61,668 nt of DNA, filler included, from Dimargaris cristalligena (GCA_003614675.1; 4 parts of 4 records of this genome joined end to end with filler, not necessarily neighbours in it); one strand, 5' to 3'; counted from the whole stretch's first letter, positions 15,384 to 46,374 are shown. Notes: generated by a model from the sequence alone, not told the origin. Program-made: numbers and translations.

Positions 15384-15483
15384 NNNNNNNNNNNNNNNNN
15401 NNNNNNNNNNNNNNNNNNNNNNNNNNNTTAATTAATTAANNNNNNNNNNNNNNNNNNNNNNNNNNNNNNNNNNNNNNNNNNNN
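15384..15483. other. Artificial contig spacer (N44-TTAATTAATTAA-N44)
   Basis: 100-nt linker with stops in all six frames, repeated three times in the window. Confidence 0.97.
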
Positions 15484-15753
15484 CCCCAAACCCAGCAAAG
15501 CCCAACGTTCCGCACTATATGACGAAATACGGCGAGCCGTCTAGCGGAAAGAAACCGGAGGTTCCCCCTCCTGCCAACTCTCCCAAAGGCACGCCAGCGG
15601 AGTCCCTCAAATCGTTGGCAACACATAGGTCAACTGGTGGCGAATTGAGGTGGACTTTGGACACTTATCTCAACAAGGCAAAGCCAGGAGCGGACTCGAT
15701 GGGATTTGGATATATTTAAGCATGGGTACAATTAAACGGTCTGGTTCCGGGTA

Positions 15754-18463: not shown

Positions 18464-19267
18464 ATGGCCTGCCCCAAATACGATGACAATGCTGAAAGGT
18501 GTGCTCCCGAAAGCGATTTCCTCCCTGCGACGACCTACAATGTCGTTTATTGGCCCTCCGCCAACCCTTTTAGCCTTGAACAGGCCTTTCTAGCTACACA
18601 GGCCCTTATCTGGAACTACCTGGCCGAAACCCACGGCCCGGAGGCGGGAACGGAAAAAGGGACCAAAGTTCCGAGCCGTCTCCGGCCCGTCGTTACGGCT
18701 ACCAATGGTAAAGGCATTACACAACTCCGGTACCACCGTAATGACCGGGTCGTGTTACTCTACTTGACCGGAGCGGGGTACCATCGGCAGCCTACCCGCC
18801 GTCGCCCATACCGACACGTCCCCCTCGACGACCACGAAGATGGCGAAGACAGTGATGAAGACGATGATGAGGAGAAGGAGGAGGACACTGCCTACAACTA
18901 CGACAACCCCAACCATAACCTCCACCCCCACCAAGACCAACTAGCCCCGAGGTATAGTACCCCCCCGCCCCCGACTATGGCCGTCGAATTGGTGGACTTG
19001 ACGGTCGATACCGAATACCCCCTGGGTTTAGGCAAGGGCATGAAAAAACTCGCCTCCATGGCGCACCACTACACCCACATCTACGCTATTCACTGCTCGT
19101 TCCCTGAATCGGCAGAAGAAAGCCAATCGGAGGAACAAGATAGTAGGTTTAGTGACCATATACACTTGATGTTTGAGGAAGGAATACTGGCCAATACTAT
19201 ATTATGGTACATTAACATAGGCAGAGTAAATGTGGTGGATTCGGAAAGTCTCTTTTATATCTATTGA
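18464..19267 (+). CDS. Hypothetical protein (267 aa) with a central acidic tract
   Basis: Long ORF with a good start context (gccaccATGG), C-ending codon bias and a TATA-like tract at ~18274. No family recognised. Confidence 0.7.
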   Translation: MACPKYDDNAERCAPESDFLPATTYNVVYWPSANPFSLEQAFLATQALIWNYLAETHGPEAGTEKGTKVPSRLRPVVTATNGKGITQLRYHRNDRVVLLYLTGAGYHRQPTRRRPYRHVPLDDHEDGEDSDEDDDEEKEEDTAYNYDNPNHNLHPHQDQLAPRYSTPPPPTMAVELVDLTVDTEYPLGLGKGMKKLASMAHHYTHIYAIHCSFPESAEESQSEEQDSRFSDHIHLMFEEGILANTILWYINIGRVNVVDSESLFYIY

Positions 19268-20440
19268 TTGGTGACTAGGTTAGTAACAACTATATTTGCC
19301 TATACTAAGCCAGTAAATTCGCGGGGTTCTTTTTTTATATATAGCCAATATTTCTAATCCTTGAATCCTAATAACAGGTGAGTGTTTACACCATCTTGGA
19401 TAAGCATCGCTGTGGCAGCACAGCATTCGATTAATTTCCCTCTTATGGTCCGACAGACCCCATTATACCTTTCTGTTATTTGCTAATAACACGATTACCC
19501 TACGGCCAAATAAACACATTCCATTAGCCGGTGGTGCACTTAACCGCAGATAATACAGTGCCTAGACATTCTCGCATCGCGCCACCCAATCAGATAATAA
19601 TACTACAAATGTGGTAGATGAATGTTCATTTTTTCAGCTAGATAGGGGCGCCATAATTAAAAACGTCACAATAACTCGAAATTAAACTGATGGGAGAAAT
19701 GGGTGAGGAGTGGATGAGAGGGAGGGGGGCAAATTAGTTAACAAACCAATACTATACTATTAATTAATAAATAATAGTACGATAATAATATATAAGGGGG
19801 AGGAGGGCTGCTTAAAAGAGGGAAAGGCATAGATAAAACGAACCAAAAGCGAAATAGAAAATGGAGCAAGAGTCATAAGGTAATAGACCAACGCCATGGA
19901 CAGCCAAATCCATCCGAAGTTCCATAAGGAATTCAAGAGAGACCGAAAAGAAACGGCAGCCCGATATCTTTCAAAGATACCAGGTAGTCAGAATAAAGCG
20001 AAAAGGCAAATAAAGGGGAGGGCTTCTGGAAGGTACCAAAATAAAAAAAGTAAAAATAGGCCGCATGGGCAAATAAAGCAAACAAATCAATGTGCACTAT
20101 GTCAATAAAGTAACAGTTGTTTGAGTATAATGGCTGGTGAGTGGGGTGGAAAGGGGTATGAAAGAATAGGGGGACAAGCCAAGAAAATGAGCAGAGATAT
20201 TAATCAACATGAGGGAAGGAAGGGGATTACCCAAAGGCACGGGTGAAATTGAGTAGATGGTACTGGAAGGGGACGGAGTAGTCGATTAATAGCATGTGTT
20301 TAAAGGGAACGAATTGAAATAAATACTATAAAATAAAATTAAAAAGAGAGGACAAACCCTTCCAACCATAGGCAACCCCAGCAGCACCAGGCATTCATAT
20401 AACAATAAGTAGTTTAAGGAAGGTCACGTGCCATGCTGCA

Positions 20441-23400
20441 TCAAGCATCACGGTTGGCCTGTTCCCGGGCCCGGCGGATCAAGGGAGCCAAGCTCCGAAG
20501 AGGCTCGGCCTTTTGAATGAACTGATGGGTGAGCAGCTGAGTGGCATTCGGGCGACGGTCGGGGGATACTTCCAGGGCCTTCTCCAAGAAATCCCGGAAC
20601 ACTAATGACAAACTCTCGGGATTCTGGAGCGTGGGCGTGCCATTGGTAGCAATGAGGTACAGGGCTCGTAGCGGGTTTTCATTAAGATATGGCGGCTCAC
20701 CTTCCACCATTTCAATGGCCATGATACCAAGTGACCAAATGTCAACCTTGGGACCGTATTCCTTTCGCTTGACCACTTCAGGGGACATCCAGTAAGGGGT
20801 GCCCACCATCGTAGTGCGTTTGGAGTTGGAGTCGTTCAATTGAGCGCAGAAACCGAAATCAGTGAGTTTGATCTCCCCCGTCAGTGAGAGAAGCACATTG
20901 TCACTCTTGATATCACGATGGATGACCCCCTTGGAGTGAAGGTGCTTAAGACCTTCCAGGGTTTCGCGGCATACGGCGGCGATTTGCCCCTCTGTCATGA
21001 GGTTGTTGGTCACCACTTCAGTCAAGCTACCACCTTCCATATACTCCATAACGACCCACAGGTCGCCCCGGTACAGGAAACTATCAATATAATTTACAAT
21101 ATTGGGGTGGACGCTCTCCCGCATAACCAGAATCTCGTTGATAATCAGGTCCTTCTTGGGCTGTTTCTCCAGGTTCATTTGCTTGATGGCGACGCAGTGA
21201 TTCGAGGTGGTCTGGGTAGCCGTATATACACCACCAGAGGCACCCTGCCCAATCTTCACACGGTTGGTGTAAAGCTGGGTGGGGTCGGCTGGGTTACAAA
21301 TGGCGCGCAGGCGCTCCACCACATCCTCATTATCCTGACGGTTGGGAGGACGAGTCCGCGGGATCGGGCCAGTGCCGGGGGTGGTGCGAGGGGGAGCGGC
21401 CAGACTACTGGGCTGTGATGGGGTACCGGACGATGGGGCAGGAGGGTGCTCGCGGCGTGGGGTGGAGCTTCCTTGGGCGTGATGGTGATTGGCGGATGGG
21501 GCCGACTTTTGTGGGTAGTGGTTACTGACCCCGGACGCAGCAGCCGCGGCCATAACCGCATTGGTGTGGACAATTGGGGGCATTGGCGGACCGGTACTCC
21601 GGCCGGAATCGTTGTCCCGGCGATGTGACTGGGACTTGGAATAGTGCAGGGCGTGTTGGCTGTGATGACCCTGGCCAGGATTGGTGTCTGAATATCGATG
21701 GATGAAATGGGGAACGGGATATAGGGAAATATTGGCGGGAAAATAGTGACGGAAATGGTTAGACTTGGAAGTAACCAAGGTGATATGGGGATGGAAAGCA
21801 GACAACATCCCTTAACTAACAATAATAATAGCATAAGTTTAGAGTGGGGCACTTACGTGAGCGGGTCAGCGCTGGCGTGTGCTGTTGAGCCTTTGGAAGT
21901 AAACGGGGCAGTAGGACAAGCCAAAGATGAGGCATAGTGTAAGAGATATTGAAAATAAAAATGAAAAATATGAGATGACTGGTGTTCAATTGACTAACCG
22001 CGAATGGTTTAAAACATTCCAGTAACAATCAAGGAACCCAGGCGAGTAGTAGTGTAGGGTTATGTAACTTACCACATCGTCAGCACTTTGGGCCTTGGCT
22101 GGGACGTTGTGGGGGGCGGGCTGTTTTATACGGGGCTTTTCTGAAGCTGGTGGAGGAGGAGGAGCACGCTATATCACATGGACCAAAAGGCCGGGGAGGT
22201 GCCAATAATGCAAGTAGGGGATATCCAAAGTATACATGTAATAATAATTGTACAATGTCGAGTGAGCAAAGGGGTCTAAAATTGAATTGGGCAATAAATA
22301 ATACTCGTTATATTATTGGTATAAAGCACAACGATGGATCTGTATATCCTTAGGTGACCTGGGTGGAAAGGACTGTGAGATCAGGCAAATTAATGACCAC
22401 AGCGACACCGATACCGGCAATGCAGGGAGGCTTTTATACTAGACTGGCCGGGTAAGAATGGCTTCATAGGAGCAGCCAGACAATCTGCATCATTATTCAT
22501 AACGATGCAAAAATATTTGCGGACACTGCCTCAATCGACGGGTTATAACTAAACACACGCCTATGTTTTTATATAAACTTACCGGGTTCTCGAACGCGCC
22601 ACCCATATTGGGATGGGGTGGACCCCGATTGGAGGGCGGAGGGGGCGGGGGTCGATTTGGCACTCGATTAGTGCCCGTACCAGGCATAGCCATCTTGGCC
22701 CAAACCGCGTCACCCTTGGCGTGTGTGCTCTCTTGGTAAAAATTGACGACATCGATGACAGCCTAGTAGTAGATGTTGGTGAGGAATCGAGGCGATTGGG
22801 AGAGAACAGGATAGATGCAAAACAAAACAAAAAGAGGGGGAGAGAAGGAACAAGGTCGATAAGTATGATCAAAAGCGCTGCGCAGGACTCGACAGGCATA
22901 GTGCAAAAGGGGGGTTTGGGGGAGCAAATATAGAACCGGCCCTTAACAAGAAAGAGGGGAACGGAAGAGTAGGGGCCGGGGTAGGACATCAACTGATGCG
23001 GTAGTACAGCAGGGGCGCGCTGCTGGTGACTAAGGTGGATACCAGGCCCCTTGATGCGGGGTAGAGGGTATACATGTAGGCACACGGAAGCACTAGGAGT
23101 AGCGGTGACGGATGACTTACTTGAGGGTTGGCCTGCTGCTCTTGCTTTGATATACCGGCCTCTCGAAGCATGACCGACCATTCGCGGGGAAGGCCCTGGA
23201 AGAAGTATTAACGGAGACAAGTGGGGTGCGGGTCAAGGACACCGGAATTAGTAAGATGGTCATAATATTATTTTTGAACCGATACGTAGTTTTGGCGTTA
23301 AAAGGGACATATATGCTAGTTCCCGGTGTGTATAAGCAGAAACTAGATTTGGGCCTAATCGCTGCTGCAATTTACTAGTAAAGGAACTGTCCGGGTCCAC

Positions 23401-24230
23401 TGCAATTCACGCTTAAATGAAGCCTGATCCGGGTGAGTGGCCCGCGTGGAAATAAACCCAGAAAGGCAAATTAGACCATGGAAAAATTATAGTATACTTA
23501 CGGTAAATTCGCCGGTCTCGGAATTGAAACCCACGTGTGTAATGTGAATAGGGTTATAAGGCGAGCTGATTTCGGCCTTCTTTTCCCCGGATAGCAGTTC
23601 TGAGAAGGAACTCATCAAATTGCCAAAAACGCCCTTGACGCCCTTGCCGTTGGGACTATCCACGGGGGTAATAGGTTCGAGGGTACCGTGGTAGGCCTCA
23701 CTGAGAGGTTTGGCAGACGGGTCGCCGTTATTGGCGTAGCGCTGGGCATTCAGATCCTCAGGGGAGGTAACAGACCGGTGCAGTGGGGGGCCGGCGGGTA
23801 AACGGGGATTGGGATTGGGTTCGCCCTGGCGCTGGGCACTTTTACGGGGGGGCGGTGGGGGCGTACGATGCGGGGTTAGACTAGGGGTTGAACCGCCGCT
23901 AGAAGAAGGGGGGTAGTAACCCGAGCTGGAGGCACTGACGGCAGCAGGGGGTATCGCAGAGTAGTGGATCTGAGGGTTGCTGGGCTGATGATGAAGGGAC
24001 ATGTTGGGGTGGGTACCCGGGGGTATTTGGGTGCGCATATTGGTCATGGAGAGGGATTTAGAGACGGATGAGGCACCCGGTGGGGGTGGGGGACTCCGGT
24101 GGGGCATGAAGGAATCGGGATCGGCCAGAAGATGATGGCTGGGAGTGCTACTGTGGTCCGGTTCGGGGGGGCGGTACGAAGACTGCGAAGCCGACGGCTT
24201 GCGGTGGAGATTGGGGCCCGGAGCGGCCAT
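20441..24230 (-). CDS. STE20: Ste20/PAK kinase, 6 exons: complement(join(20441..21687,21857..21890,22073..22168,22583..22762,23121..23195,23502..24230)), ~786 aa
   Basis: CRIB motif [16 protein letters not shown]; spliced GEFT/GLPREW and [12 protein letters not shown]; kinase motifs [17 protein letters not shown] and [12 protein letters not shown]-terminal G-beta-binding-like motif [10 protein letters not shown]; no PH domain, unlike Cla4. All donors are GTAAGT and the phases are consistent. The exon 5 acceptor is slightly uncertain. Confidence 0.92.
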
Positions 24231-26477
24231 CCTACAGGGGGCAGAGCGGAGCGAAGGAGGCTAAAGGAGAGGGGCCAGAAAGCTGGGTCGGATAGATGGC
24301 GACGGGTGGGGACCAAGGACTAGCTAGAGAAAGGATAGCAAGCCGATAATAATAACAATAATAGGAATAGTGAGAGTAGGAATAATGATAATATAAAAGG
24401 GGAGCTAATAGCACCTAGGTACAGCGGTTACAAGGATATAAACTAAGTAACCGACAATAAGCATCCAGAGAAAGCAAACTGAGGCAGTAGATGAAGAAGG
24501 AAGGAGATTGAAGAGGAGTATAAGCTGGGCCAAAAGACCAGGTGTAAACAGAACACATGCGCATATAGCATACAGAGGGATCCAACAACACAGCGTCTTG
24601 GTAACCTTCGCCAGGGGAGAAGGGCTGCTCTGGCTGTTAATAACCACTACTACTACTTATGTTATACTATTATATTACCACGCGTGCCTGAAGGGGGGGA
24701 AGGGGAGAGGAGAGAAGAGAAGAGAAGGGAGGAGAGAAGAGGAGAGGAGAGGGAGCTGCTGTCTCTCGGGTGGAATTTCCTCCCCTACCCAAGTAAAGTA
24801 GACCTTCCGGTATGCCCAACTCCACTAACTACCTACCTAGTCGTACATGGCTCTAACAAACGGCGATAATCACCCAGCGAAATTCAGTGATTCTATCTTC
24901 CACGTCCCCCAAACATAGTGCCTACTTGCCCCATAGGTTTAGCACTACCGCTCTTGACCATTTTACTGTAAATGGCGCGCTTGGCAAGACCATGTTTTTC
25001 TGGAACTATACATTCAAGAAGCCCATAATAAACATGATGTAGTCCATGTTAATTCGGCTGCTTAACCAGAGCCTTGGGAGTGCATTTGGCGGTCGCACGG
25101 CCATTACACTTCCCGCTGGGCCACTGATACCCAAGATCACATGACTGTACCCCTTTCTCCTATCCTCCCTTAGTCTCGCTCGAGTTAGCCTAGGCCGATG
25201 CCGTCTCTCTGCACTCCCCCCACGGGACAAATCAGTCCGTTGTCGAAGGTATGCCAGGGGAGATCAGTAGTGCCACGCCATACATCGACCACCGCATATC
25301 CGCTCGATGGCTGGGAGGGGGGGAAGGTGGCATAAGAGACCGCGGCTGACCCACACCCCTGGGGCTGTACTTCAAGCGACGACCGGTTAGGGTTAGTTAG
25401 TAAGACAGGTAGGTAGGTGTAGGAAGAAGGGGTGGTAGAGGAAACATTGAAAAGTGATTTATTCGACTGGACAGGACAGGATCCAAGGGGCTTGGGCTCA
25501 ATATTGGCCGCGCCTATAATGCGGAATGAGATTGACCGGTGTTTCTCCTCAACAACGGCTGGGGGTGGCACATAGCTGCCATTCCCATCTTAATGAAAAA
25601 ATATATATATCCAAATCAACACCTTAACAGTGAACCCCAAGCCATAATTGTCATGATTGCCGCTTGGTTTATGAATTTCATGAGTGTGTCAACTCAGGGA
25701 TGAAACCCCCATTTTTGCCTACCAGATCCTATTTTATATACGGATTTTGTGATTATATGTCTATCCGATTGCCCTGGAGGGCTATATTTAACTTCGATCC
25801 TTTAGGGATATTCCTATGCCCAAAAAGAATAAGACGGTCTATTATATATACGCGAGGTGCAATCACGCCCCTAGTGTCAACAAGGGATTATCTACTTTTA
25901 CCTACCTCTGCGTACGTCAAATATGATATGCACATATTTAGGGACTACTCCCAAGTGCAGCTGATTAAATTTGACGTATGTGAGAGGCCCTCTCCTCCTC
26001 CCTCGCTTTCCCAGCCTTCCAAAGAGAGATGCAGACACCCCCAATCACCGCCCCCCGCGGTATCATAAGCAATAGGCCTGTCTTGGTGACCAATGACAAC
26101 CAGTTGCCATGGAAGTGCTTTCGTGGTTATATTGGATATTAGTATTACTTAAGTGAGGAGACCAGGCACATGTTGAAGAAGAAGAGAGAAAAAAAGTGCC
26201 ATAATGTGTATATATAAAAAAAAAAAGCCGTCAGAAAAAAATCCACCGGATTCGTGCGCTGTCGCACTTGTTATCGAGTATAGATGGAAAGTACATTGGG
26301 CCACGCCCCAACCGTACATGTTGCCACTGTGAGTCCACCCACCCACTCATTCCCTCACTCGCAGGCCTTTGCAATAGATCGTTTAATAAATAAAAAAGAA
26401 ATCCGATTTTATTCATAGTGCATATGTGTGGATTCATAGCATTTCCACCGCCATTGGGCGTCTACTCTACGCAGTCG

Positions 26478-27212
26478 TTAATTTCCGGGGGTTTGGTTTC
26501 CCACTAGAGGCATTATGTTGGACGCAGGTCTTGGCATAGAGGGCGCCGCCCCATTCACTTTTCCGGTGCAGCCGTGCTGGTGGGCTGTTTGTTCGCATTT
26601 CTTAGAAAATGCTGCGGGACACCGCCGGCAACGGTAGGGCGGCGTCGTTTTAGCTGGCTGCCAATGCGCTGTCAACCGGCACTTGTGTTTATAGCTTTTG
26701 GTACATACATCACAGCGAAACTGGTAATGGGTACAGTCCAATTGCAAATGCTGGTCATATCGCTTCCGGCTAGCGAATATTTGCCGGCAAGTGGCACATT
26801 TAAGGAGCTGCGCGCACTCACCCGACTCCCGGTGACCCGCCAGACTATGGCCGTTACCAAATACTTTTTGGCAGTCGGGGCAGGGTTCCGAAACATGTTG
26901 CCAATAGAGGTGGCCCTGTAACAACTCGGCATGGGTGAAAAGGGCCCCACAATCCGGGCATGGTAAGTCGGCCTCGCCAGGCATGCTGGAGCTTTCCCTA
27001 GACAGCTTGGTCGTTACACTGCAATCTTCAGTGGGTGCGTTCACTGGGCCTCGAGTTTCGCCCAGAGCATGGCTAATAGAGGGCGGCGATAGAGAACTGA
27101 GCTCCTGATCGGCCACCAGATTTGGCAATGTCGGTTGGGCATGAGCATTGTGATAATTGGTTACTAATGATATAATAAAAAGAGATGCGAGTCTAAAGGG
27201 TCGATTCATCAT
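26478..27212 (-). CDS. Signal-peptide protein with five tandem C2H2/C2HC-type zinc fingers (244 aa)
   Basis: N-terminus MMNRPFR-LASLFIISLV-TNYHNAHA/QPT. Five CX2CX12H units (CPDC, CPDC, CATC, CDVC, CRRC), each with F/Y at the canonical position. Confidence 0.85.
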   Translation of the reverse strand: MMNRPFRLASLFIISLVTNYHNAHAQPTLPNLVADQELSSLSPPSISHALGETRGPVNAPTEDCSVTTKLSRESSSMPGEADLPCPDCGALFTHAELLQGHLYWQHVSEPCPDCQKVFGNGHSLAGHRESGECAQLLKCATCRQIFASRKRYDQHLQLDCTHYQFRCDVCTKSYKHKCRLTAHWQPAKTTPPYRCRRCPAAFSKKCEQTAHQHGCTGKVNGAAPSMPRPASNIMPLVGNQTPGN

Positions 27213-28524
27213 GATTATGGTGACCTATTTCCGTAGTCTGTACAATCTAGAAGCAGTTGGATGGAAAACGATAGTAGAAAAAAAATAAATGAAGTGCCTA
27301 CAGGCGGTATATGAGGGTATGCTTAGGACTGGTATTATTGGTATGGTGCCTAAGCGGGTAGAGGCTGTGTGGTCTTCGAGAGGATAACTAGATACGGTTC
27401 CTCAAGGCGGGGAGTAGCAATGTTTAAATACAAAATGAAGATGCTGCCCTGGGCTAATGCCTCACTTGTAATTTATTGATTTATGGTGGGGAGGCAGGTC
27501 CACATCTCTTTTTAAAACACCATTAAGCCCTATTCGATGCAAAGGGATGGTGTCGCCTCTGGTTTACCTCCAGTGCTACGTTAAATAATGACCATGGACT
27601 GAGAGGGCGGAATCTGCCGTAGGACACGGGCTGAGCGTGTAACGCCCTAACGTACGAGGCAGAGCAAATGGTTTTTGGCGGCGGGCCCAGTCAGTATAAG
27701 TAGCGAGTATTAAGGCCAGGCTGCTTTTAGGCGTGTTGGGCTAAATGGACTTATGGCGCAAATCGCGGAATATCCACTATGCCTCCTTGCCCGAGTACCA
27801 TTTATTCAGAGATCTTGAGCAAGGAGTGTTGAAACAAAACGAGTGGTGGTCTATAATAGAAAAATATCAGATACCCACTGTGGATTGCCTCATATAATTA
27901 TAAGGACATGCCTGTCATACTATATATGGCTTATCCAAGAAGGCTGGCAGTTCCCAATACATTAACTAAAAGGCTATGTCCAATTTTCCCCCATTGGGTA
28001 AATTAGCCAAATATCTTAAAGCTGGTGGCGCCCCCCCCCCTCGCTAATAGCCAATGCCCACCACCAGTGTGGGGGGTATTTCGTATACTTCGGCTAGCCC
28101 ATTATTGCACCCAAGTGGGCTGCCTGGTTCTTGTCATACCCCTGTTTCCCCTTATACACTCCTACCGGCTTGGTTTATAGTCCATGCTAAGCCAGTTGTG
28201 GACCGATGCCACCCGCTCACTCTTTCGGAGCCCCCGATTTGGTAGCTCAGTGGGGAGTTGCTGAAGGGTCATTTTGCATTGAGTAGAGGAATATTCTCCG
28301 AATACAAACCCCGCCTATTCATAGATAGTTTCTTACCATAGATTGGTTGTACTCGATTTATCTGATTCTATGGTGCCTCCTATTATAGAAGCACCCGGCA
28401 TATTTTTACATCATCCGCTTTTCGCTGCAACGGGGGCCAGGAGGTGCTAAGTAACTGGGAAATTTCAAGGGGGTGGGATTTCAGGCTCAATGGTGGTTAG
28501 CAGCTGGGAAACGATATTAGTTAC

Positions 28525-28670
28525 ATATGGGAGAAATTCATTCAGGCTGTATAATGAAGAATCCATTGGATGAGGCCAATATTATTGGTTAAAAGGTATT
28601 CTCACATATATATTCACCCATACATGTATTATGTAAAACCTTATACAGCTAGTTTGAATTTCACCCATAT
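28525..28670 (-). mobile_element. MITE copy 3 (inverted), ATAT at both ends
   Basis: atatgggagaaattca...tgaatttcacccatat, the reverse-complement homolog of 4628-4771. Confidence 0.8.
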
Positions 28671-29046
28671 CCTTTAGGCAGTCCATCTCCACAGGATACG
28701 AATTGATTTCCACTGCTAAAAGAGTAAATTTATTGACAACCCGTAAAGAAATATAAAATTAGACAGTATACTGAATCAAAGAGTAAAAGGCGATATCCTA
28801 TATCGGTTTAGAACAAATCAGCTAAAAGACCAGGGGATCCCTGTCTGAGTGACTGTGTCTCCGGGATACGAATGGGTGACCAGGGGGAAGCAGTCAAGTG
28901 GCTTAACAAGTCGGTTGAGCCGAACAAACCCATATTTCAGTAGCGGACGGTGTGACCAATGTCATTGTAAAAAGCTGCTAACCGATGCTGCCAACTTGGG
29001 ACATACAGGGGGTTGAGAGGGTTCGAAGTGCAGGAATCCATTAAAA

Positions 29047-30852
29047 CTAATTGGCCATAGCCCGGAGCGTAGTGTTCGTGATAGGCGATTGAAGGATACT
29101 TGAGTGATAATGCGCGGCCATAAGCCACTGGTCCATTAGCTCGTTGCTTAAACCTTGATCTAAGAAAGCCGAGTCGGGAAGAGGGGGATTTTGGGGCAGG
29201 ATGGAACGGAGGGTGAGAAAGGAAACGGATGTTTTCAATTGACCATCTTCGCCCACGGTTCTATTAATAAATAATTGAGGGTTCAAACTCCATTTATCAT
29301 CGCAGACATCTTCTTTGCAAAATATCATGGTAGTTTCACTCTGGCACTCTCTCTCTAAAGTTTCGACAGCCTTTTTGAAGCCCAGAGCTCGGGCACAGTT
29401 GTATAACTTCTTTTTATCCCCGGAGGTATAAAGGTATTCAGGTAAGATTCGCTCTTTGCTTTTGGCCCAGGGTGATTCTAAATATCCCAACTCCATGGCC
29501 ACTAAATCAAGGAACGTACACATATAACTACTAAATCTCCATTTAACATTGAGTTCGGCGATATAGTCTTGTAGTAAATGGCTTCCTTGTTGGACCAATG
29601 CTCCGATGATTAGAGAAATTGAGTATATAGTGGTCATTTGACGCATAGCATACTGTTCCATTTCACGCCCGTCTCCGGGGGCCAGTCAGGATTGAAGATA
29701 AGCTGCCAAATGGAACCATGGTCGAGAGATTGTCCGTTAGTGATGTAATTTCCATAATCATGTCATTAAGATTTCGGAGTTGTTTAGCATCACTGTGGAG
29801 GGCTATCTTGACTAATGGGAACAAATCCATCAGTTGCGCCGAGTTCAACTCGTCGAGGCGCACGTAGCACCATTCGGAATAAACCCGTTCCAATTCGGTC
29901 TTGAACTCTGGATTACTCAAAAGTCCTATTTCGGGAGCCAGATCATTGTCCCAGCGTACTTCGAGTTCCTGTTCATCGTCCCAGTGTAGGTCGTTAGTAT
30001 AATGTGCCGCCTCAACTTCCGTAAATTGGGTACTATTGACGACAATATATCTTTCCAAATCGTTATCAAAAGCGTATTTTTCTCCTGTTGGTGAGATACT
30101 GATTTCATGGAGGTAGCCATACGCCAAATAGAATAAGGCAGAGGTCAGTTCGACCCTTAGAAGCTTCTTTATATGATCGGCACTCCATTCTAACTTGGAG
30201 TATGGCTGAAATTTGTCTAGTTGATCCATAATCTCTTTGTATTTCTAGGTAGGCGAGACAGGCGTTGGGGAAAAAATATAACTAAGTTAGAGATAATCTG
30301 TATTGTCGATATGTGAAGGTCATATGATTGGCCTAATGTAATGAACACGATATGGCAATATGCCGAGAAGTGTTGCTCTTAGTGTTGTCGAAGGAGCCTA
30401 GGGAGCGTATTCCTGAAAACTTTCGGCCCAATTAAGATTAGATTGGCTAGGTCACTTACATTGGCTAGTCTTCTATATTCTGGTTTGGAGTTGACCAGTG
30501 CCTGATTATATTTAGATGTTTGGGCTAATTGACCCAAGCCACGCGCAGGTAGGTAGTTGGTTACAATCCCAAGAATTTCCGGGGGGAAATCTATAGTCTT
30601 CCTCCCTGTTCTTTCCTTAGGTTGGGTATGGTCGTCAGTGGTGGTTTCCTGTTCACCGAACGCTGTATTTTGCTGAAACCGGGTGTTGTCGCCCATTAAG
30701 ACCGCATCCATCATCTCGTCGGGCTGGGACGGAGACATCGATGACCACTCGTTCGAGGCTTGCGAAGCATAATTGGCATGGCCAGGGGCGCTAGGGTGAC
30801 CGGAAACCATGGCACAGTGGGCCAAAAGCATACCCACCAAGGTAACGGAGTA
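29047..30852 (-). CDS. Signal-peptide + F-box-like protein; 5' end cut by the contig edge; intron 30245..30459; frame break near 29677-29681 (possible pseudogene)
   Basis: Partial signal peptide ...YSVTLVGMLLAHCAMVSG/HP and F-box-like IDFPPEILGIVTNYLPARGLGQLAQTSKYNQALV. A GTAAGT..CTAG intron joins RRLAN to KYKEIMDQ in frame. The downstream ORF 29047-29661 starts immediately after the TGA in a shifted frame. Confidence 0.7.
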
Positions 30853-30952: not shown

Positions 30953-31635
30953 TGACTAGGATGGGGAGGGTGAAAATAAGAGGGAACAGCTGGACGAATA
31001 GGGTGCAGGAAACCTGGGCGGTTAACTGTAGAACAATTATTTTTGGGGCCTTTATGGGTAGTTTTAGACCAAGCGCCAGTGCAAGTCGCAAACCCTATAT
31101 GAATGGCGACGCTACAGGAGGGCTACTAAACAGCAGTTCATTAAGCTATCGGGTATGCCACTTCTACTATTGATTGTGGCTATGCCTACTCTATTTTATA
31201 CATCCCAAGTGCTTCTTCGGGGATAGGTGCGCGGGCTATGACATTCGCCAGACTAACATTGGCTGGCCTTTACCGATGTACCGACGTTACCACTTTTGAC
31301 CGAAATCCCCATCGACTCCAGTATTTTAGCATCGTGACAATAAAAGAGGTACGGCTTAAATACTATTAGAATAACCTTATAAGCCAACTTTTTCTAACGG
31401 AAAAAGTTAGCGAGGGAAACCTTGCTATCCGCAATTCCTTCAAATTTTAATGGCGGCTTAATGAGGCCAGTATACCTCTACTTCCCCTCTGACGTAGCCC
31501 GCTGTTTCCTTACTTGCATAGCTCCGTAGATTGAGCAGATGTCCACTAAAGCTTTGTGTATTGGGTAATCGCAGCTACCGGGGCACCCCTTTGTTCACTG
31601 GCATATTGGAGACTCCGGCTTATGAATTTTCCACA

Positions 31636-31756
31636 TATATAAGGGTTTGCACTATATGTGTATGGGAGAATATATGGGAAATGTATTTTTAACTAGTAAT
31701 AGTGGCCGAATCTAATGGGTTTTTCGTTATACAGCTTGGATGAACTTCTCCCATAT
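31636..31756 (+). mobile_element. MITE copy 4 (left TIR mostly missing)
   Basis: tatataagggtttgcactatatgtgtatgggagaatatatggg...ttatacagcttggatgaacttctcccatat, nearly identical to copy 1. Confidence 0.8.
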
Positions 31757-32575
31757 TTCATTGAACTTACCATTGTTGTTGTTTTTTTGGATATTTTGGA
31801 ATACCCTTTCAAAAGTTTTAAACACCCAGTTTTCCAAGTATGATTTATACGACAAGAATCCTATTGTGGCGCTAAATGATTACCGATTACTGGTCACATC
31901 TCAAACGAGTATCCAGTCAATAGTACCGCCATCATGTACATTATCTCAATAGCCTACAGGCGAATACTATCCTGGTCTCCAGTATAATGCACCTGCATTG
32001 GACTACTAAGTTAGGGCTGGGCGAAACTCCGCTATAATGTCGCCCCCCCTGTACAAAGGTCAGCTAGGGGGAGGGGGGGTTGGATGATGAGCAATCGCCT
32101 CGAACGGCAAAATTATCAAAAAATTGGCCAATCTCCCGGAGCTGTCCGTTACATCCATGGACCTCGGCTCTCTCTGGGAACCCCTCGGGCCAATGGGCTG
32201 CTTCAAGCTCCCTTCCCCTCAGTCTAAAAATGGATGCCGGTGAAAACTATTCGACCGTTAATCGAGTGCCCCGTCCCTGCTATCTGGGCCCCCAGTGCAC
32301 TTAAGTTTTGCCGACTCGAGTACCCCCACAGGTGAATATATTACCCCGCTGCAGGTTGAAACCCACGACACACACACATACCTTACTTGACGTATATTAA
32401 AAATGCCGCAGGGTAGGGAAATGTATGTATCTCTCTATAAATATGCGCATACCCATCCTTGCTTATCAACAAACCCATGCTCCACCTATCGCCCAGTCGT
32501 TCATATATAGATTTTGCCTCGCGATATACTTTTTTGACCTTACCTCGTACTTAGCAACTCGGCCTCCCGTCAACT

Positions 32576-34541
32576 ATGCGCGCCGCTTTAATTTGGGTAA
32601 GTGGGCTATCCAGTGTCTTGAATAATCAAGCTGGGGGGTTCAGTTTGCCATATTTCATCCGCAACTGCGACTCCCCACACATCATATCAGTGAGGATAAA
32701 ATATGCTGCACGGCCATAAGGCTTTATTGTCAAACACTAGGTATCTGACCCCGAATGCCCATGATATTATATACTGTATTTTGTAAATTACCCCAGTCCA
32801 CGGCCACGGTTTTAGCCAGTGGATGGGCTGTCGAAGTCAATACGCTGCCCTATTCCCCCAATGAAACCCAGGCACAATCAAGTTGGTTCTCTAAGCCATT
32901 TTTTTCTTGGGGGGAAAACGCACCATCCCCTGCCAGTGAAAACCAGTTTAGTAGGGAGGTTGAAGCTAGTGTGACATTGGATGAACAGTATAATGACGGG
33001 GCCACCTGCGATCTCACCAAATTTGCGAAGGAGTGGGCCAAGCGTGAAGATGTCCCGGCCAAAGAAGTTGAACACTACAAACTTCTTCGCAAGTAAGTTG
33101 TCCTGTACATATTTCCATGATTCGATATCTATCGGCTAGCTCAGTCAGATTTTATTTTACCAGGGCACGCCGATTGGCGGTGTCTTCCTTATACTGTCTA
33201 TTACCACCTCTCCCAAATAGGGAAGCCAATATGACCGTATGTACCAGTTTGTAATAGAATGGCAACCTATCCAACCGCTGTAACATTGGTCATTTCCAAT
33301 ACATTTTTTTGATTGCCTTGATATGTTTTGCCCTCACACGTTAGTTACGCATTTGCTGCCTACCAATCCCTAAGCACCATGGCCGAGGAAGTTGAGAAGG
33401 ACCACTTTATAAAGACCGACTCCGTGAATATATTTGAAAGCCTTTCAACGGCTGCTTGTCACGGGTTCGTTGCTGAAGACAGTACGGGCGAAAATATTTA
33501 TGTTTCATTCCGCGGTTCCACCCCCGAAGCCAAGGTTACGTTTTTTTACGATGCCATGGGCTGGTCAACTGCTTGGCCGGGCTACGAATATATTTCGGTT
33601 CACAAGGGGTTTCTCTCGGTCTACAGTCAGTGTATCGAATCCTATACTGCGGCTCTCGACAAGGCAATGGCGAACTCCAAAGCAAAAACCATTTACTTTT
33701 TAGGGCATTCCCTCGGCGGTGGTAAGTGATTATGATTGTCGCTATTCAATTAATTTCCAAACGCCATAAATTCTCGAGCCTCTCTACCCCCCCCCCCATG
33801 TCTGGTCCCAGTATACAAGTGGCCACATCCACGACTTAAAATGCATTATATTGGCGAATTTAGGGTGAATATAGCACTCTCCATGTTTAGTAATACATCT
33901 CCTCCCTGGCCATGTCTAATCATTAACCCTATTTATTTATTTTTGGAAATTTGCACGACTCTTTTGTTTTTACTGTCACAGCCGTCGCTAATCTGGCTGC
34001 CTTTGACTACGCGTCCGTATACAAAGGCAAGAAAACCCTGCCTCCTCGTCTGGTAACCTTTGGAAGCCCACCGGTCGGTAACAGGGAATTTGTGAAACAG
34101 TACAATAGTCGACTAATTCCAAGTACCCTAGTGACCTCTGGGTTCGACCTGGTTCCGAATGTCCACCTAATGGGCACCTATTTCCACGTTAAAAAGGAAA
34201 TCTACATTCTTCCAGGTGGGAAACGCACCATCCAGTGCATTTATGACGACGTACTGTTCGCCAACGATCCGAATTGCTCTCCTGACCTGTCCATGATGAA
34301 TTGTAGCATCGCGGACCACAGCAACTATTGGGGATTGATTGATTTTACTCCCACCATCCTTAAAATATCCGAGAGCTCAGACCCTAGATTGAAGGGCACT
34401 CTGGTTAAGCAACCCACAGATGCCCAGTTAGAAGTTCTAGAGTCGATAGGCAATGTCGTGGAGCTCAATGATAAAACTCTGGAATCGGTAGTTGGTGTTC
34501 CTGAGGAGTCGTCCGACATCGAGTACTACGTGACAAGTTAG
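32576..34541 (+). CDS. Class 3 triacylglycerol lipase, probably secreted, ~5 exons (32576-32596, 32797-33092, 33164-~33236/33250, ~33345-33721, 33982-34541)
   Basis: YVSFRGS, VHKGF, spliced nucleophile motif GHSLGG/AVANLAA, VTFGSPPVGN, DLVP and DHSNY; N-terminus MRAALIW/STATVLASGWA. The exon 3/4 junction is uncertain. Confidence 0.88.
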
Positions 34542-36190
34542 ATGGACACGAGTGTCGGGAATTTGTCCTCAGTAATACGGAGATGTCATTTACAACAAGT
34601 CAGCCCACGATAGTTTAGGCCGACATAGCTCATTAAGGTATACTAGTGGTTTATGAGTGGTTTATTAGAAATTAGTAAATAAATTAATGATTAGATTTTA
34701 GTTGCGCATTTATTGTGACTTGCAGCCGACGGTCTTGCAATGGGGTAATTGAATTATTGTACTAATACCAACCACAGCAATACCAATGCCATATGTGTGG
34801 TATCAAGACTTAGGGGGGGGGGAAGGAAGAATCCGGAATTTTACTTGCGGGTTGGAGAAAATCCGGTTTCGGCAGGGAGTTTGGTCCAAGTAACCATTCA
34901 ATAAGATATTACCGTCGACGTAAAATGTGCGCCTGGCGGTGAGTCAAACTTTGGACTAACAAATCAAAACATGTCAATTAATTTGAAATGGGCATCTATT
35001 TGTTTATAAAAAAAACTCAATTAGATCTTTCGATTCGAGTGTATTATGAACTAGGATTTAAGATGTCAGGCTTGACTAAATCGTCGTCGTCATTGAAAAT
35101 ATACTGTAAATATAGTAAAATGTAAGCAATCTTAAAAACAATCACCGATGCCACTCCAATAAGATACATCAATAAATGGCTACAAACGAGGGAAAATGAT
35201 ATATAAATTTATATCATTGTTAATACAGTGAGGATTCTTTAATTGGGAGACGGGATATAGACACGGGTGCAATGCGATGATAATCGATAGGTGTGCCCCT
35301 TATTCGGTGAAGTATATAAGTGTAGGACCCCCCATATACTCCGACAGTAAGTGTTCTAGTAAATGACCGGGCAGCAATAGAGATCCTCCATTCACAACCC
35401 CATCATGGAGTACACTTAATGACCCACCAATGTGGCAAGTAGAAGCCCGAGGTTAAATTAACGAACCCATCTCTAGCCGACATCCACTAGTGGATAGCAG
35501 CTCTTATTATAGCACACGTAGGCCACAGGGACCTGCGGGGATAGGTCGAACTTGATTAAGTCCGAAAAAAATGGAAATTACAGTCTGCTTCACCGCGCCC
35601 GCATTTCAGCCAGGGAATACCGTTGGTGCAGGATACGGTAGGGTCGGAACCCAGGCCGTCTATGCCCATATTATGTTCACTAAAAGCATACTTAAACTAC
35701 AGGGTGATGTCGCTGGGCCAGTGGTTACAACAGGTAAATATAGACATTCGGGACATAGCGCAACCGCTTAATTTGAAATGGCTGTGTGCTTCGAGTATAT
35801 ACGAGACAGACAGTCCCTAACAGTCTAATGTATAGGTAGTCAGACTGGGCTGACGATGCATTTTTAATAAACAAGTCCCGTTCTGCAATTTTATAATAAT
35901 CGCACACCATAGAAGATATAGTTATTCGCTTCCCGCTTCAATATTCTTCGAACCCGTTATTTACCGGGCATATATTGTCTAACATAGTCAAAGCTGTCTA
36001 CTTGAAAAGGCAGAATCAGTCCTAATCATTTCAATAATCCATTGCTTTGGAATAGACATAGTTCGTCAAGAAAATAGAGTGTCAATTTATTGAGCTTCAC
36101 CCCTCCTCACCCCACCAATCATGTTCGTTATTATATAATGGGGGTACTTTTTTTTTAAAAAAAAGGCGAAACTAGTGCCAAAGGCCGTAT

Positions 36191-37545
36191 TCACATCATT
36201 GAACAGTTATCCATACCCGGTAACTTGGGCATACCGTCGCTGCCCGTATCCATATCGGGGGCGATATCCTTGAGTATTTCCTTGGGGGGTTGGCCGCAGT
36301 CCTGCATATCTTTCATAAGGGCAACGATGCGACCTTGGCCCGCCTCGGACTGGGACTGGGCCTCGTAATCCGGGGCATTGTAAAAGGCCACGATTTCTTT
36401 GACGTAGGCGTATTGCTTGGCATATTGCTCGTACTCGGCGGCCGGTAGCGTCTCGCGGTGGGACTCCAGCCAGGCGGGATACCGTTCGGCGAGCTCCTTC
36501 ATGGGCTCGAAGAGGACGTCTTTGGTCATGATTTGTTCGAGAATTCCCTCCATCATCTTCTCGAAATCATCGCCGTCAACGAGGCCCTCCATCTGCTGCA
36601 TCATTTCGCTGATTAGGGAGTCGGGATTCTGGTCATCGGACATATCGGTCTAATAGTGGGTAGAATGGGTAATGTGTATAGTCAAGGTGGTGAGTAATAG
36701 CGACCGGTTTGAAGGACCCAATTCCGAAATAGGGTGGATTTTGAGGAGGGCTACCCCAGCTTGGTTATGCACAATGGTTCCACAGACAGAAAGGAGGGCA
36801 CTATCACTTCTCAATAGAGGACGTGGGAACATTCCCGTAGCTGCAGACCACAATTTTTTAAATAATCAGGGGCGCAGTGCAAGAGGTAGCAGAAGACCCA
36901 GGGCCAGGCGTAACGCAGCCAGGGATGACCCAGGTGACTGCAGAAGTGGTGTATTGTATCGATAGCGAGCCTTACCTGGGCTTGTTCGGAACTGGTGTCC
37001 AATTTATTGAGGGTCTGTACGATGCGCTCTTGGAAGGTCTGGGATTTCGACGCAGAAGCGGGTCCCTTCGTAGTGGAAGTGGAGGTGGCAGGGTTCGCAA
37101 TAGAAGCAGCAGCAGTAGGGGTGGAGTCCGTTGGGACCGACCGATCCGAGGCACTTTGACTGGCAACTGGCGAAGCCATGAGGTCATTGAGGTCGGCACC
37201 CTGTAGGGACTGGAGGAGGTTCTCCATGGTTGATTTCAAGGCAGGGGCTTCGTCAACCTGGCCCATCATTTGGCTCATTTCTTCCATCAGTTGGCGGGCG
37301 AATTCGTCCTCAAAGTCCTGACTGAAGTGGCCCACCGACTTCGACTCGGGTGGGGGCATGCGCTTGGTTGACGCCGTCGTTGCCGTTGTCGTTACCGAGG
37401 GAGGGCCGGCTGAACTCGTAGGCGGAGCGGGGGGCTGGGTCTGGGGTGGGTTGAAGTCGTCTAGAATGTCATCGAGGAACTCGTCCAGGTCGTCGTCAGC
37501 GACGGCTGCCTCGGCGGACACTTTCGGGGGTGGGGGACCGGACAT
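36191..37545 (-). CDS. PEX19: Peroxisomal membrane protein import receptor Pex19, 2 exons: complement(join(36191..36649,36976..37545))
   Basis: N-terminal DDDLDEFLDDILDDF; FQERIVQTLNKL; MTKDVLFEPMKELAERYPAWL; MQDCGQPPKEI; CaaX box CSMM; in-frame GTAAGG..TTAG intron. Confidence 0.93.
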
Positions 37546-39265
37546 GGTGTGGGTAAATTAACAGAGTGGGGGGAATAATAGAGTTCGGAATGCGGAGAAT
37601 AATGAGCACAGAAGAGAGGAGCGTGAAGTCACAAGAGTAGAGCCCACCTCCACGTTAGATACTGGGAAGAAGGGGGCAAGAGCGTGTGTAGTAGGGAAAA
37701 AATGTACAGTGGATAATGGACGCTGAAGCTCGAGAGAATAAGAATAACCAAGGGTATGGGGAAGATGGTGATGCTGGGGAGAGCAGAGTGTACAACAATA
37801 CAACCTGAATTTCAGTATGGGGAGGAGTCACACTGCCCGTCTCAGTCATACTACTTACTCCTCCATGGTAAAATGCGCACTTCTCCATATTCCTTTATTG
37901 CCAACTGGCCGATATAGTAAAATAATGGCGGGCTCACCAGACAAATTAATAAATCCAAAAAAAAGGGTGCGGCCCTTCCTTGGCTTTGCCATGTGAAAAG
38001 AAGTAGTTCCCCAGCTCTCTTGCGCAAGGATATTAAATCCCTTTCCTTTATTATACACACCCTGATTATTCTTATAAGATTCCAGCATGGTATAGCATTG
38101 GCTGAGTGAAATAAGCACGTGACTTCCCTACCCCCCCCTCCATTCCTGTTGGTTCACGACGGCCGATTGACTACTATCTACTACCAAAACCCTTGATTTT
38201 AACATAGGAGAGATAATATAATTACTGGACTATATTATCCGGAGGCCAGTTCGTTTATCAAAAAATATTATCCCGAAAATCATGGAACAATCCGTCTTTT
38301 ATTACCACCATGTTGAGTTTGGGAGTGCCCACAACTTACGAGTCACCGAAGTATGTCAATCATTTATATATCCATAACCCACACTTTCAAACACACAGTC
38401 TGCGAACGATGGGCACCAAAATACCCTTCGGATAGCAGTTAGTGGGAACCTAGTATGGTACACCATCATAATTGTCTTACCTCTCTCTCTCAGTAGCTGC
38501 GCGGCTATATCTAGCCCAGATTCTCCGAATCGTCGTGACACTATACGCCCAGGTTCCATACATCAATTGGCCTGGACCTACCCAAAGGTGATGTGATTCG
38601 GCCAGTTCCCATCTACTCGAAAACTTTCTCGTCTACTGGCTCGCGATCTAAATTCGCACACCGAAGCAACTTCGCCTGTTAGTCACATCGATAAACACCG
38701 CCGATACTGCTAGCGAGAATTCCGCGCCAACGACGGACCCACAATCGTAATGCTAAAGCACCGCTTCATTCGCGAACGAGCCGGTAATAACGTACATGAC
38801 CGCTGATTTCATTGTAATGCCCGGCTTTATCTGATATTGAAAACTGGAAGAGGGGGCTGTAAAACGACGCTAGACGGACAAAGAAAGGAAGTCACACATG
38901 CAAGTTTCCGCGTAGTACGTTGTATGCGCTACAATATACCTTTTGCCGACGCCAAAAAGAGACCCTAACGACCCCTCCCGTGAAAAACCCTCGAAATTGC
39001 CGACGCGTTAAACAAACTTAACAAATAACGGGCTAACTTCCGTCGCATTAGGAACCTAGCGGAGGTGCGCTAATAAGCGTCTATTTAATCGAACCCTGAA
39101 CAAATAGGCGCATCGAAAAACATAACAACAATCCGGGCATTGGGCTAAGTGGCCATATCAATAAGACCGTAAAACAAAAACTCATAAATTTACTAATATA
39201 CGAGACTGGACGAAAGCAGGGGGAGGGGATATCAACGAGGGATATCCCGGTTTCCGCACCTCCGG

Positions 39266-40495: not shown

Positions 40496-41074
40496 GTTGG
40501 CAGTTAAAAGAGGTAGTAAAGTGGAAAACAGGTAAGAGAAACAATGCAAATCCAAAGCACTGGAAAGTTGAATAAAACAATGTCAAGGTCCATGGGTCTT
40601 GACGCCTAGTAAACGCCCGCTTAATAGGATTTTAGCCGGCCTAACCACTCCCCTCAGTGAAAAAAAAAAATGGATTTTTTTTATAGGAAAGCGATGCCCA
40701 ACAGCTAAGCCATTTGTGGTCGGAGAAAGGCCCAGGGGGGATAATGGATGCGACGACCAATCAAACAACCCAGTCACCCGGCTACTGGTCTGCTGTGTTC
40801 AGGGAATAAGCCGGCGCGGCTCTTCCCGTTATCTTTTGCGCAGACTGGAAGTAATGGACTTCATGGTGTTGTCTGTAGTGCTTATTATACCTCCAGTAGG
40901 AGAGGAATTCGCAACAACCCTTCCTATACACTTTAGCCAAGTCGCCCTGCTACAGCGTTTCCATTACTAGGGCCACCGCCATTTAATGGAATTTTATTTA
41001 TTTATCTCCCAACCGTCGTCTGGCCGGTGTTCTCCACCCACACATCGCTCGAAATACAGTCTTAACCGGCAAGT

Positions 41075-42352: not shown

Positions 42353-43360
42353 CTAACGAACGGTATTTATCCACATGCAAGAAAACTGCGGGTTTTCAGT
42401 GGATAGAGTTTTGCATCGCTGAGATACTGTGTCACGAACGACGGACAATTCGGCAAATAATGGCACCATCAAAAGCTCAACTTGTCCGGATGCCCTCTTC
42501 AGAGCGGCGATGAGTTCCTTACACTGGTGGCCCTGGTCATCCGTGAAAACCTGGGCGGTCATTCCCCCGGTCGACTGCGACTGGTCGAGCAACACCAGCA
42601 TGTAGCGCTGAAGGGGGGTGTTGGTCATTTTTTTCAGAAGTTGCAAAAGCGGAAGCACGTTAGCCAAACCATTCGTCGGAAATCTCTCGGGACCCATGGA
42701 CCGGGCGTACGCGGCAAAGATATCCAGATCAACGAATGATGCATCGACACATTGGTGCTGGGAACCGAAGATGAAGGGTAATTTCGAAATCATGTCACCC
42801 AGTTTGTAAATTTCCCCGACTAGTACATCCTGCTTGTCGTTCACCGCCTCGACTGGATTATCCAGTTTGCTGTTCACCACCTTGATGAGATCAATCGACG
42901 CTTGGCGTAGCTCCTCCGCGATCTCGATAAAGGCGTCGTTCTGAGGGGTCGAACCCATAATGGAATAATAGGAAGTGGAACTCCGGTGCTCAGGCGACTC
43001 GGATAGTTCAACGGTGGTCTGCCGATGGTCGGGAATCTCATGGCCGTTGCGGTCCCACTGGTGGCTCCGATCCGCCGAATTATCGACGTGGAGGTTCGGG
43101 AACATCCCGGAACTGCCTTCTAAATCAGGGAAAAGGGCAGGCGATGCATCCCCGGCCAAGGGATCGTCTAAATAGTGGTACAGATCCGTATCATCAAAGT
43201 CACTCGACGCAAAGTTCGAACGATCAAATTCGGGGGACCTGGGTGTGGCCGGGGCGGCCCAGCCGCTGGGTTGGTGATGTAGAAACGATGCCGCGCTGGT
43301 CGATGCGAATACAAAGATACTCAATACCACTGTGAATGAGGTCATGATTGATGCTGGCAT
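42353..43360 (-). CDS. Secreted protein of unknown function (~330 aa)
   Basis: Signal peptide MTSFTVVLSIFVFASTSAA, acidic low-complexity linker and helical-looking C-terminal domain; intronless; TATA-like tracts upstream. Confidence 0.75.
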   Translation of the reverse strand: MPASIMTSFTVVLSIFVFASTSAASFLHHQPSGWAAPATPRSPEFDRSNFASSDFDDTDLYHYLDDPLAGDASPALFPDLEGSSGMFPNLHVDNSADRSHQWDRNGHEIPDHRQTTVELSESPEHRSSTSYYSIMGSTPQNDAFIEIAEELRQASIDLIKVVNSKLDNPVEAVNDKQDVLVGEIYKLGDMISKLPFIFGSQHQCVDASFVDLDIFAAYARSMGPERFPTNGLANVLPLLQLLKKMTNTPLQRYMLVLLDQSQSTGGMTAQVFTDDQGHQCKELIAALKRASGQVELLMVPLFAELSVVRDTVSQRCKTLSTENPQFSCMWINTVR

Positions 43361-46361: not shown

Positions 46362-46374
46362 TGGGACTGGTTCA

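Follow-up and report, generated by a model that had tools for sequence, protein, structure and literature searches.

In Magnaporthe oryzae, the rice blast fungus, 20 of the proteins predicted to be secreted have a DNA-binding domain, which in half of these is of the C2H2 zinc-finger type, and MoHTR1 and MoHTR2 are secreted and have been seen in rice nuclei (PMC7672089). MoHTR3 is a third secreted zinc-finger nuclear effector of the same fungus (PMC10189765). According to a review table, the SSGP-71 effectors of the Hessian fly typically have an N-terminal F-box followed by leucine-rich repeats (LRRs) and interact with host Skp proteins, and the bacterial RipG/GALA effectors appear in the same table (PMC4617103). 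Here we describe two neighbouring genes in a 61,668-nucleotide stretch of DNA (the window) from Dimargaris cristalligena (GCA_003614675.1), composed of whole contigs joined by N spacers: a zinc-finger open reading frame (ORF) and an F-box-like gene that is truncated by a contig end (Table 1). With 15,307 nt, the fourth piece of the window has exactly the length of the contig given for one protein of this assembly, and we therefore take the pieces to be whole contigs. We tentatively read them, at somewhat less than an even chance, as two separate, merely adjacent genes of a haustorial mycoparasite, each a candidate secreted protein or effector. What is new here, as judged from sequence, is a species-restricted F-box-like family with a conserved leader module and divergent bodies.

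The zinc-finger ORF resembles MoHTR1, MoHTR2 and MoHTR3 in having a putative signal peptide and then a C2H2 domain in a biotrophically feeding fungus, a likeness of layout. It differs from them in that a parasite from the Kickxellomycota would here act on a fungal host, with about five fingers in place of one and no nuclear localization signal recognized. The closest counterparts of the F-box-like gene are SSGP-71, whose members presumably bear a signal peptide, and RipG/GALA, with which it would share a delivery signal, an N-terminal F-box and a variable C-terminal protein-binding domain; these are large diversifying families for which mimicry of host F-box proteins through Skp1 and the SCF (Skp1-cullin-F-box) complex has been proposed. 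In contrast to them, the C-terminal domain here is all-helical, without a Pfam family or clear fold and without LRRs, the F-box is sub-threshold, the family has five loci and the organism is a fungus. The gene is thus not a member of the SSGP-71/GALA F-box-LRR class, but its product may work alike.

The lifestyle of the organism is that of a parasite. A VPS34 frame in the window is 99% identical to a protein named Dimargaris cristalligena by its source, and the next-best matches all come from Dimargaritales (Dispira simplex, 73%; Tieghemiomyces parasiticus, 72%; Dimargaris verticillata, 65%), in line with the NCBI taxonomy of the species (Kickxellomycota, Dimargaritales). Members of this order parasitize Mucoromycota and some Ascomycota by means of an appressorium and a biotrophic haustorium (PMC9866270, PMC10386755), and D. 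cristalligena is possibly non-haploid (PMC9866270). An earlier note, made from the DNA sequence alone, had guessed an early-diverging fungus living on other fungi and proposed a VPS34/PSF1 phylogeny as a check of the taxonomy; the guess was right, the VPS34 match pointing to D. cristalligena, a haustorial mycoparasite.

The F-box-like gene belongs to a family that we found in one species. An exhaustive HMMER search of 1.84 billion representative proteins, with the last 209 residues of the gene as the query and a threshold of E <= 0.001, gave four matches, all of them named D. cristalligena: P0121 (474 aa, E 3e-31), P0122 (372 aa, E 8e-13), P0123 (114 aa, E 8.5e-06; cluster mate P0125, 229 aa) and P0124 (289 aa, E 3.3e-05; cluster mate P0126, 295 aa). 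Counting the window gene, the family comprises five loci so far. Conservation along these proteins is strikingly uneven, as the leader and linker of the window gene are 92.9% identical to those of P0121 over 85 aa, whereas the bodies of the same two proteins are only 35.5% (172 aa) and 44.8% (203 aa) identical; against P0122, the leader and linker reach 35.8% identity over 81 residues. Both P0121 and P0122 begin with MAMKS and continue with the hydrophobic core of the window gene, VSG or VSS, and RP. Directly 5' of the F-box start, the motif QPK[ED][KR] is aligned in four family members and may belong to the F-box itself. A species-restricted mosaic of this kind, in which the leader module hardly changes whereas the body diverges, is at the level of sequence an effector-like pattern; gene conversion could yield the same mosaic without any uptake function. 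The RXLR and Crinkler effectors of oomycetes likewise join a conserved N-terminal leader or translocation module to a divergent C-terminus. They differ from the present family in their motifs, since the conserved motif here stands directly ahead of the F-box, and an RXLR- or LFLAK-type motif was neither searched for nor seen.

The structure of the F-box-like gene is that of two predicted exons, the first of which carries leader, linker and F-box segment without interruption (Table 1). P0121 has seven more residues (MAMKSIS) ahead of the visible leader, so the window would lack only about seven codons of the gene. Codon usage, scored with a table trained on 3,232 codons from conserved genes of the window, supports the three coding pieces, at 0.20 to 0.29 in frame versus -0.3 to -0.6 out of frame. 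Contigs from four DNA sequencing runs of two studies (X1, X2, X3 and X5) were compared with the window, and X3 and X5 contain second, divergent contigs over 30502-30772, of similar depth, in which 8/139 and 14/148 letters differ. These contigs match the substitutions of P0121 up to the F-box and then run ungapped through the F-box with mostly conservative changes; over their whole length, 7 codons differ synonymously and 12 non-synonymously. We considered them as alleles of a non-haploid genome and set this aside, as their substitutions match P0121, whose body is only 35-45% identical, and a paralogue explains them better. They suggest that the annotated P0121 model splices out an F-box encoded by its DNA.

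The neighbouring zinc-finger ORF has an in-frame stop four codons 5' of its ATG. Pfam C2H2 models (PF00096 / PF13894) score above their curated cut-offs in three stretches of it, with E 6e-10 and 39.4 bits against a cut-off of 27 for zf-C2H2_4, and E 1.4e-09 and 38.3 bits against 25.2 for zf-C2H2, which identifies it as a C2H2 protein. The spacing pattern C-x2-4-C-x12-13-H-x3-6-H/C recovers four fingers (aa 85-106, 111-133, 139-162 and 195-215), several of them ending in Cys and not His; a fifth, degenerate finger was recognized by eye at aa 167-187, and the Atlas feature matches of the ORF were all generic C2H2 clusters. The leader has two Arg, a 10-residue hydrophobic core at aa 8-17 (mean Kyte-Doolittle 2.76) and AHA followed by Q, with a predicted cut after aa 25. 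Both genes lie on the same contig and on the minus strand, and 1834 bp separate the stop codon of the F-box-like gene from the ATG of the zinc-finger ORF. No minus-strand ORF of at least 50 aa was found within 27213-28936, and the codon-usage scores of 27300-28499 are negative in all six frames. The observation from which the earlier note had started, of adjacent and co-oriented genes about 1.8 kb apart with a transposable element between them, is therefore confirmed. So is the layout that it gave to both genes, in the form of a signal-like leader, a low-complexity linker and a normally intracellular domain.

Should the leaders be functional, a path from the parasite to its host can be outlined. 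The N-terminal leader would direct each protein into the secretory pathway of the parasite and would then be cleaved, after AHA in the zinc-finger protein and after VSG in the F-box-like protein. The mature proteins would leave at the haustorium and enter the hypha of a Mucorales host. Inside it, host DNA would be the target of the zinc-finger protein, as it is for the MoHTR effectors of M. oryzae, and the F-box-like protein would dock on host Skp1, its helical C-terminal domain handing host proteins to the SCF ubiquitin ligase. The precedent for the latter step is the action proposed for SSGP-71 of the Hessian fly and for the F-box effectors of bacteria. As there is no ubiquitin system in the secretory pathway or outside cells, an F-box protein with a cleaved leader could function only in the cytoplasm of another cell. 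The full version of this scheme, a species-specific family of secreted F-box-like proteins injected through the haustorium to hijack the SCF of Mucorales, alongside secreted zinc-finger proteins that reprogram host transcription, is in our view unlikely.

Several observations weigh against reading the two genes as secreted effectors, and the first group concerns the F-box. The segment fits the F-box pattern FPPEIL...L...L..L...SK....LV, and it counts in favour of an F-box that two models of the F-box clan coincide on the same 40 residues (88-128), although both are below their cut-offs: Pfam F-box-like with E 0.0032 and 17.6 bits against 24.3, and Pfam F-box with E 0.018 and 15.4 bits against 20.5. 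Also in favour, P0122 has at the corresponding place a weak match (E 0.064) to PRANC, a member of the F-box clan. A phmmer search of exon 1 against PDB sequences gave no match at E <= 10. A single-sequence AlphaFold model of the 62 aa around the segment, with a predicted local distance difference test score (pLDDT) of 63, has short helices at 22-31, 34-41 and 45-53, in F-box order. Foldseek with this model returned 13 rows at E <= 10, all with E-values of at least 1.3; five of them, which speak for an F-box, are the Skp1-bound F-box proteins FBXO31, FBXL2, SKP2, FBL10 and FBX4 (template-modelling score by query 0.42-0.51 over 32-49 alignment columns), and three more are chains of mouse cytoplasmic-lattice entries. 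We therefore call the segment F-box-like, its fold matches leaning weakly toward F-box proteins. The annotated models of P0121, P0122 and P0125 are without a full F-box segment. For the C-terminal family domain, Foldseek gave no match at E <= 0.001, and the best VIA-wide Z, 7.2, came with Pex8, designed helical repeats and eIF3 and does not rise above the background of helical models. Pfam gave no LRR family for the pieces of the window or for the paralogues, which sets the gene apart from the SSGP-71/GALA class. Among proteins of 339-2000 aa, exon 2a had no relatives; the near-length range was unsearched, so a short annotated model may exist.

A second group concerns the leaders, and here the most substantial alternative has to be weighed. 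The leaders of both genes are known from a home-made heuristic (a charged n-region, an h-region of 7-15 hydrophobic residues, and small side chains at -3/-1) rather than from a trained predictor. It flags the zinc-finger ORF (27.6), P0121 (29.6, cut after VSG) and P0122 (25.8); in all, 7 of the 63 ATG ORFs of at least 80 aa in the window are flagged, at least two of which are spurious (among them an antisense ORF and an internal Met). The two genes could instead encode ordinary intracellular proteins whose leaders are nonfunctional or whose starts are misassigned, that is, a transcription factor and SCF adaptors of the parasite itself. Proteins with C2H2 or F-box domains usually reside in the nucleus or the cytosol, and F-box families expand lineage-specifically in fungi without a link to secretion (PMC8146833). 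The models of two family loci are leaderless, with P0124, P0125 and P0126 starting further in and going unflagged by the heuristic. The next in-frame ATG of the zinc-finger ORF is codon 77 (M77), just 5' of the first finger, and the protein may start there, or the ORF may not be a working gene. Against an intracellular role speak the leader, which three members of the family retain and which varies less than the body, its union with linker and F-box in a single uninterrupted exon, and the result that the heuristic flagged 0 of the 118 VPS34 homologues that served as cytosolic controls. Furthermore, no stop interrupts the 80 codons upstream of M77, with a chance of (61/64)^80 ~0.02, and the codon-usage score of the leader and linker part is best in frame 0 (0.089 versus -0.51 and -0.28), as is that of the finger part. 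The open extension and the codon usage favour translation from M1. On balance, we consider it somewhat unlikely that both proteins work inside the parasite, and candidate secretion remains the reading that we prefer.

The hydrophobic N-termini admit a further explanation, in which the proteins stay in the parasite on an uncleaved anchor. An organelle membrane would then hold the SCF adaptor, or a transcription factor kept latent, with its domain turned toward the cytoplasm of the parasite itself. Tethered regulators of this kind exist in eukaryotes. The predicted structure of P0121 has a mean pLDDT of 53.7, with values of 70-85 in the domain, which is helical with one hairpin, and places the hydrophobic stretch of about 19 residues in a single helix (residues 3-24), a point in favour of an anchor. 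However, the stretch is rich in polar residues (S, Y, T, H, C, G), with an additional Arg in P0122, which would make it a weak membrane span, and the residues behind it at -3/-1 are small (VSG, VSS, AHA), like those of a cleavage site. The positive charge at the N-terminus would, by the positive-inside rule, place the C-terminal domain on the lumenal and not the cytosolic side. A membrane-tethered protein is thus quite improbable, and a cleaved leader agrees better with these features.

Comparisons between sequencing runs bear on whether the locus is alive. In the window, exon 2 of the F-box-like gene is split by one extra C in a run of five (29673-29677), and 4/4 codon differences between runs in this exon are non-synonymous. 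For the zinc-finger ORF, the overall codon-usage signal is weak (0.039), and relatives were absent both from a word-indexed protein search (67 candidates, lengths 134-427 aa) and from metagenome contigs (44 pattern matches, 0 confirmed). Its exact sequence is in neither the 15-billion protein collection nor the Atlas, and exact look-up of ORF pieces in that collection gave 0/5; the ORF may be unannotated in public protein sets. These results, of which those on the zinc-finger ORF likewise count against the effector reading, would suit partly dead DNA, with an unexpressed or decaying zinc-finger ORF and a window copy of the F-box-like gene that is a pseudogene in a fast-turnover family. On the contrary, the base at 29677 is missing in X2, X3 and X5 (3/4 runs, both studies), which restores one long frame, and X1 alone agrees with the window; the frameshift therefore probably stems from an error of assembly or from a rare variant. 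Three of the codon differences are clustered C>A changes (30011, 30013 and 30016) in X2, X3 and X5 that adjoin a joint between opposite strands (30020 and 30852) present only in X1, which suggests a local chimera or assembly artefact common to the window and X1. The F-box exons are clearly coding by codon usage; the zinc-finger ORF is without any variant across all four runs and both studies, whereas its flanks vary, and its fingers retain their metal ligands. Decay consequently has a slim chance. It is important to consider that the starts, intron and expression of both genes are predictions from DNA, and that RKR and RCRR, two short basic patches, are all that the zinc-finger protein offers toward a nuclear localization signal, with no clear one recognized; both points add to those against the effector reading.

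Table 1. Positions of the two genes, the repeat element and related features, counted from the first nucleotide of the window
Feature	Position	Strand	Basis or remark
Zinc-finger ORF, single exon, 244 aa: signal-like leader, linker, C2H2/C2HC fingers	26478..27212	-	ORF listing, Pfam
Signal-peptide-like leader, aa 1-25	27138..27212	-	heuristic
S/P/L/T-rich linker, aa 26-84 (~60 residues)	26961..27137	-	composition
Zinc-finger array, aa 85-215	26568..26960	-	pattern scan, Pfam, Atlas
Intergenic region, F-box stop to zinc-finger ATG	27213..29046	.	1834 bp
MITE-like element	28524..28670	.	147 bp, 30-nt terminal inverted repeats 83% complementary
F-box-like gene, truncated by contig end	29047-30852	-	
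Exon 2, helical family domain ~400 aa	29047..30244	-	frames; split in window by 1-base frameshift
Predicted intron, 215 nt, GTAAGT...TAG, phase 0	30245..30459	-	read from sequence and frames
Exon 1: leader, linker and F-box segment	30852 (open at contig end)..30460	-	frames; one uninterrupted exon
F-box-like segment, aa 86-131 of visible frame	30460..30597	-	sub-threshold Pfam, model
Low-complexity linker (~67 residues), ends in QPKERTGRK	30598..30798	-	comparison with P0121
Visible hydrophobic leader, last 18 aa, ending VSG	30799..30852	-	frame open to contig end
MITE copies	4628-4772, 4867-5008		~95 bp apart, between prephenate dehydratase and PSF1
MITE copy, truncated	31638-31756		third contig
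Orphan ORF, 335 aa: signal-like leader, acidic linker, C-terminal part without known family	42353..43360	-	another contig
Window pieces (4), whole contigs with N spacers between	1-15383, 15484-30852, 30953-46261, 46362-61668		30852 is a contig end

The element between the two genes is a miniature inverted-repeat transposable element (MITE), being short, non-coding, bounded by terminal inverted repeats and present in many copies. The 61.7 kb contain four copies, and between 386 and 568 records per run aligned to the window, almost all of them on the MITE, as judged from the listed records and the depth peak. In the four DNA runs, summed depth on the element was 600-900x that of its flanks, and contigs end at 28522-28525 and at 28670 in every run, with varied flanks. 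Like MITEs in general, the element (147 bp, with 30-nt terminal inverted repeats) is too short for a protein, and in each run contigs by the hundreds break off at its edges. Unlike them, it is without an assigned superfamily, target-site duplications being unclear in the four aligned copies, and the flanks of the three full copies gave no clear one. Its position between the two genes is incidental, real as the element is and very abundant.

These results also decide how much of the original interpretation can be kept. The earlier note had proposed a coordinated effector system organized around the MITE and aimed at host transcription and proteolysis, in which the linkers might carry a shared uptake signal. 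The genes are indeed adjacent and co-oriented with similar layouts, the organism is parasitic, and the linker is highly conserved within the F-box-like family. However, the MITE is a very abundant element that has copies among housekeeping genes too (between those for prephenate dehydratase and PSF1), so an arrangement around it is meaningless, and the orphan ORF on another contig is 10 kb from the nearest copy. The linkers of different genes are dissimilar: pairwise BLAST of the four N-terminal regions (zinc-finger ORF, F-box-like gene, orphan and a 134-aa ORF at 15754-16158) stayed at chance level (best E 0.43), the four linkers have no common motif, and a common uptake signal is therefore unsupported. 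Apart from lying side by side, the two genes show no sign of forming one system, and a single adjacency is indistinguishable from chance. Such a system is very improbable, and we keep to two separate genes.

The orphan, to which the earlier note had given a similar layout, has a signal-like leader, an acidic linker and a C-terminal part that belongs to no known family. The heuristic ranks its N-terminus as the most signal-like (34.5), and its coding score is strong (0.345). It had no Pfam match, and the Atlas holds it from residue 6 (the second ATG), with no look-alike listed. The ORF at 15754-16158 (-), on the same contig as the two genes, has a good signal-like leader and no Pfam family, and is possibly a small secreted protein.

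The remainder of the window holds ordinary eukaryotic genes, namely those for prephenate dehydratase, PSF1, a PAK-type kinase, Pex19, a DnaJ protein, VPS34 and a CsbD-like protein. VPS34 (48930-51494, +) has T/S-rich and acidic low-complexity inserts, on which its public models differ: P0001 (972 aa) retains them, and P0002 (773 aa, from this assembly) drops them as introns. An open frame at 53673-54335 (-) contains three CsbD-like stretches (E 6e-23), in a fungal contig, of a family best known from bacterial stress proteins. At 7929-13967 (+), an open frame of 2012 codons with a GC content of ~60% is very rich in P, S, T and A (of 2013 residues, 286 are P and 241 are S) and without a Pfam family, and it probably encodes a giant disordered protein. 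Another open frame, of 565 codons (13738-15435), reaches the contig end at 15383.

Within the published work, the statement of the earlier note that no characterized system of this kind is known holds in part. Secreted C2H2 proteins of M. oryzae (PMC7672089) and F-box effectors of the Hessian fly and bacteria (PMC4617103) exist, but none was found, in literature searches and look-ups of terms, for early-diverging fungi or for parasitism of fungi on fungi. By the same means we did not find a secreted F-box effector from a fungus, and a comparative paper notes that material in support of a role of F-box domains in eukaryotic pathogenicity is lacking (PMC8146833). The terms "F-box", "zinc finger" and "Dimargaris" are absent from the main text of a zygomycete secretome paper (PMC9391592), and "F-box", "zinc finger" and "translocat" from the text of a 2026 paper on candidate effectors of mycoparasites (PMC13188720). 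For early-diverging lineages, the literature consulted offers secretome surveys and candidate lists, and no characterized translocated effector was found in it.

Considering all the above, the two genes are plausible, unproven effector candidates of known kinds, the one of MoHTR-type zinc fingers and the other of secreted F-box mimics. If the effector reading fails, they would serve as a warning that calls of a signal peptide plus an intracellular domain are easily over-read in fragmentary genomes. If the full scheme outlined above is true, they would be the first F-box effectors from a fungus and the first host-translocated effectors in the parasitism of early-diverging fungi on other fungi. 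The leader-bearing F-box-like family of D. cristalligena provides a concrete, testable entry point to the control that haustorial mycoparasites among early-diverging fungi exert on their hosts.

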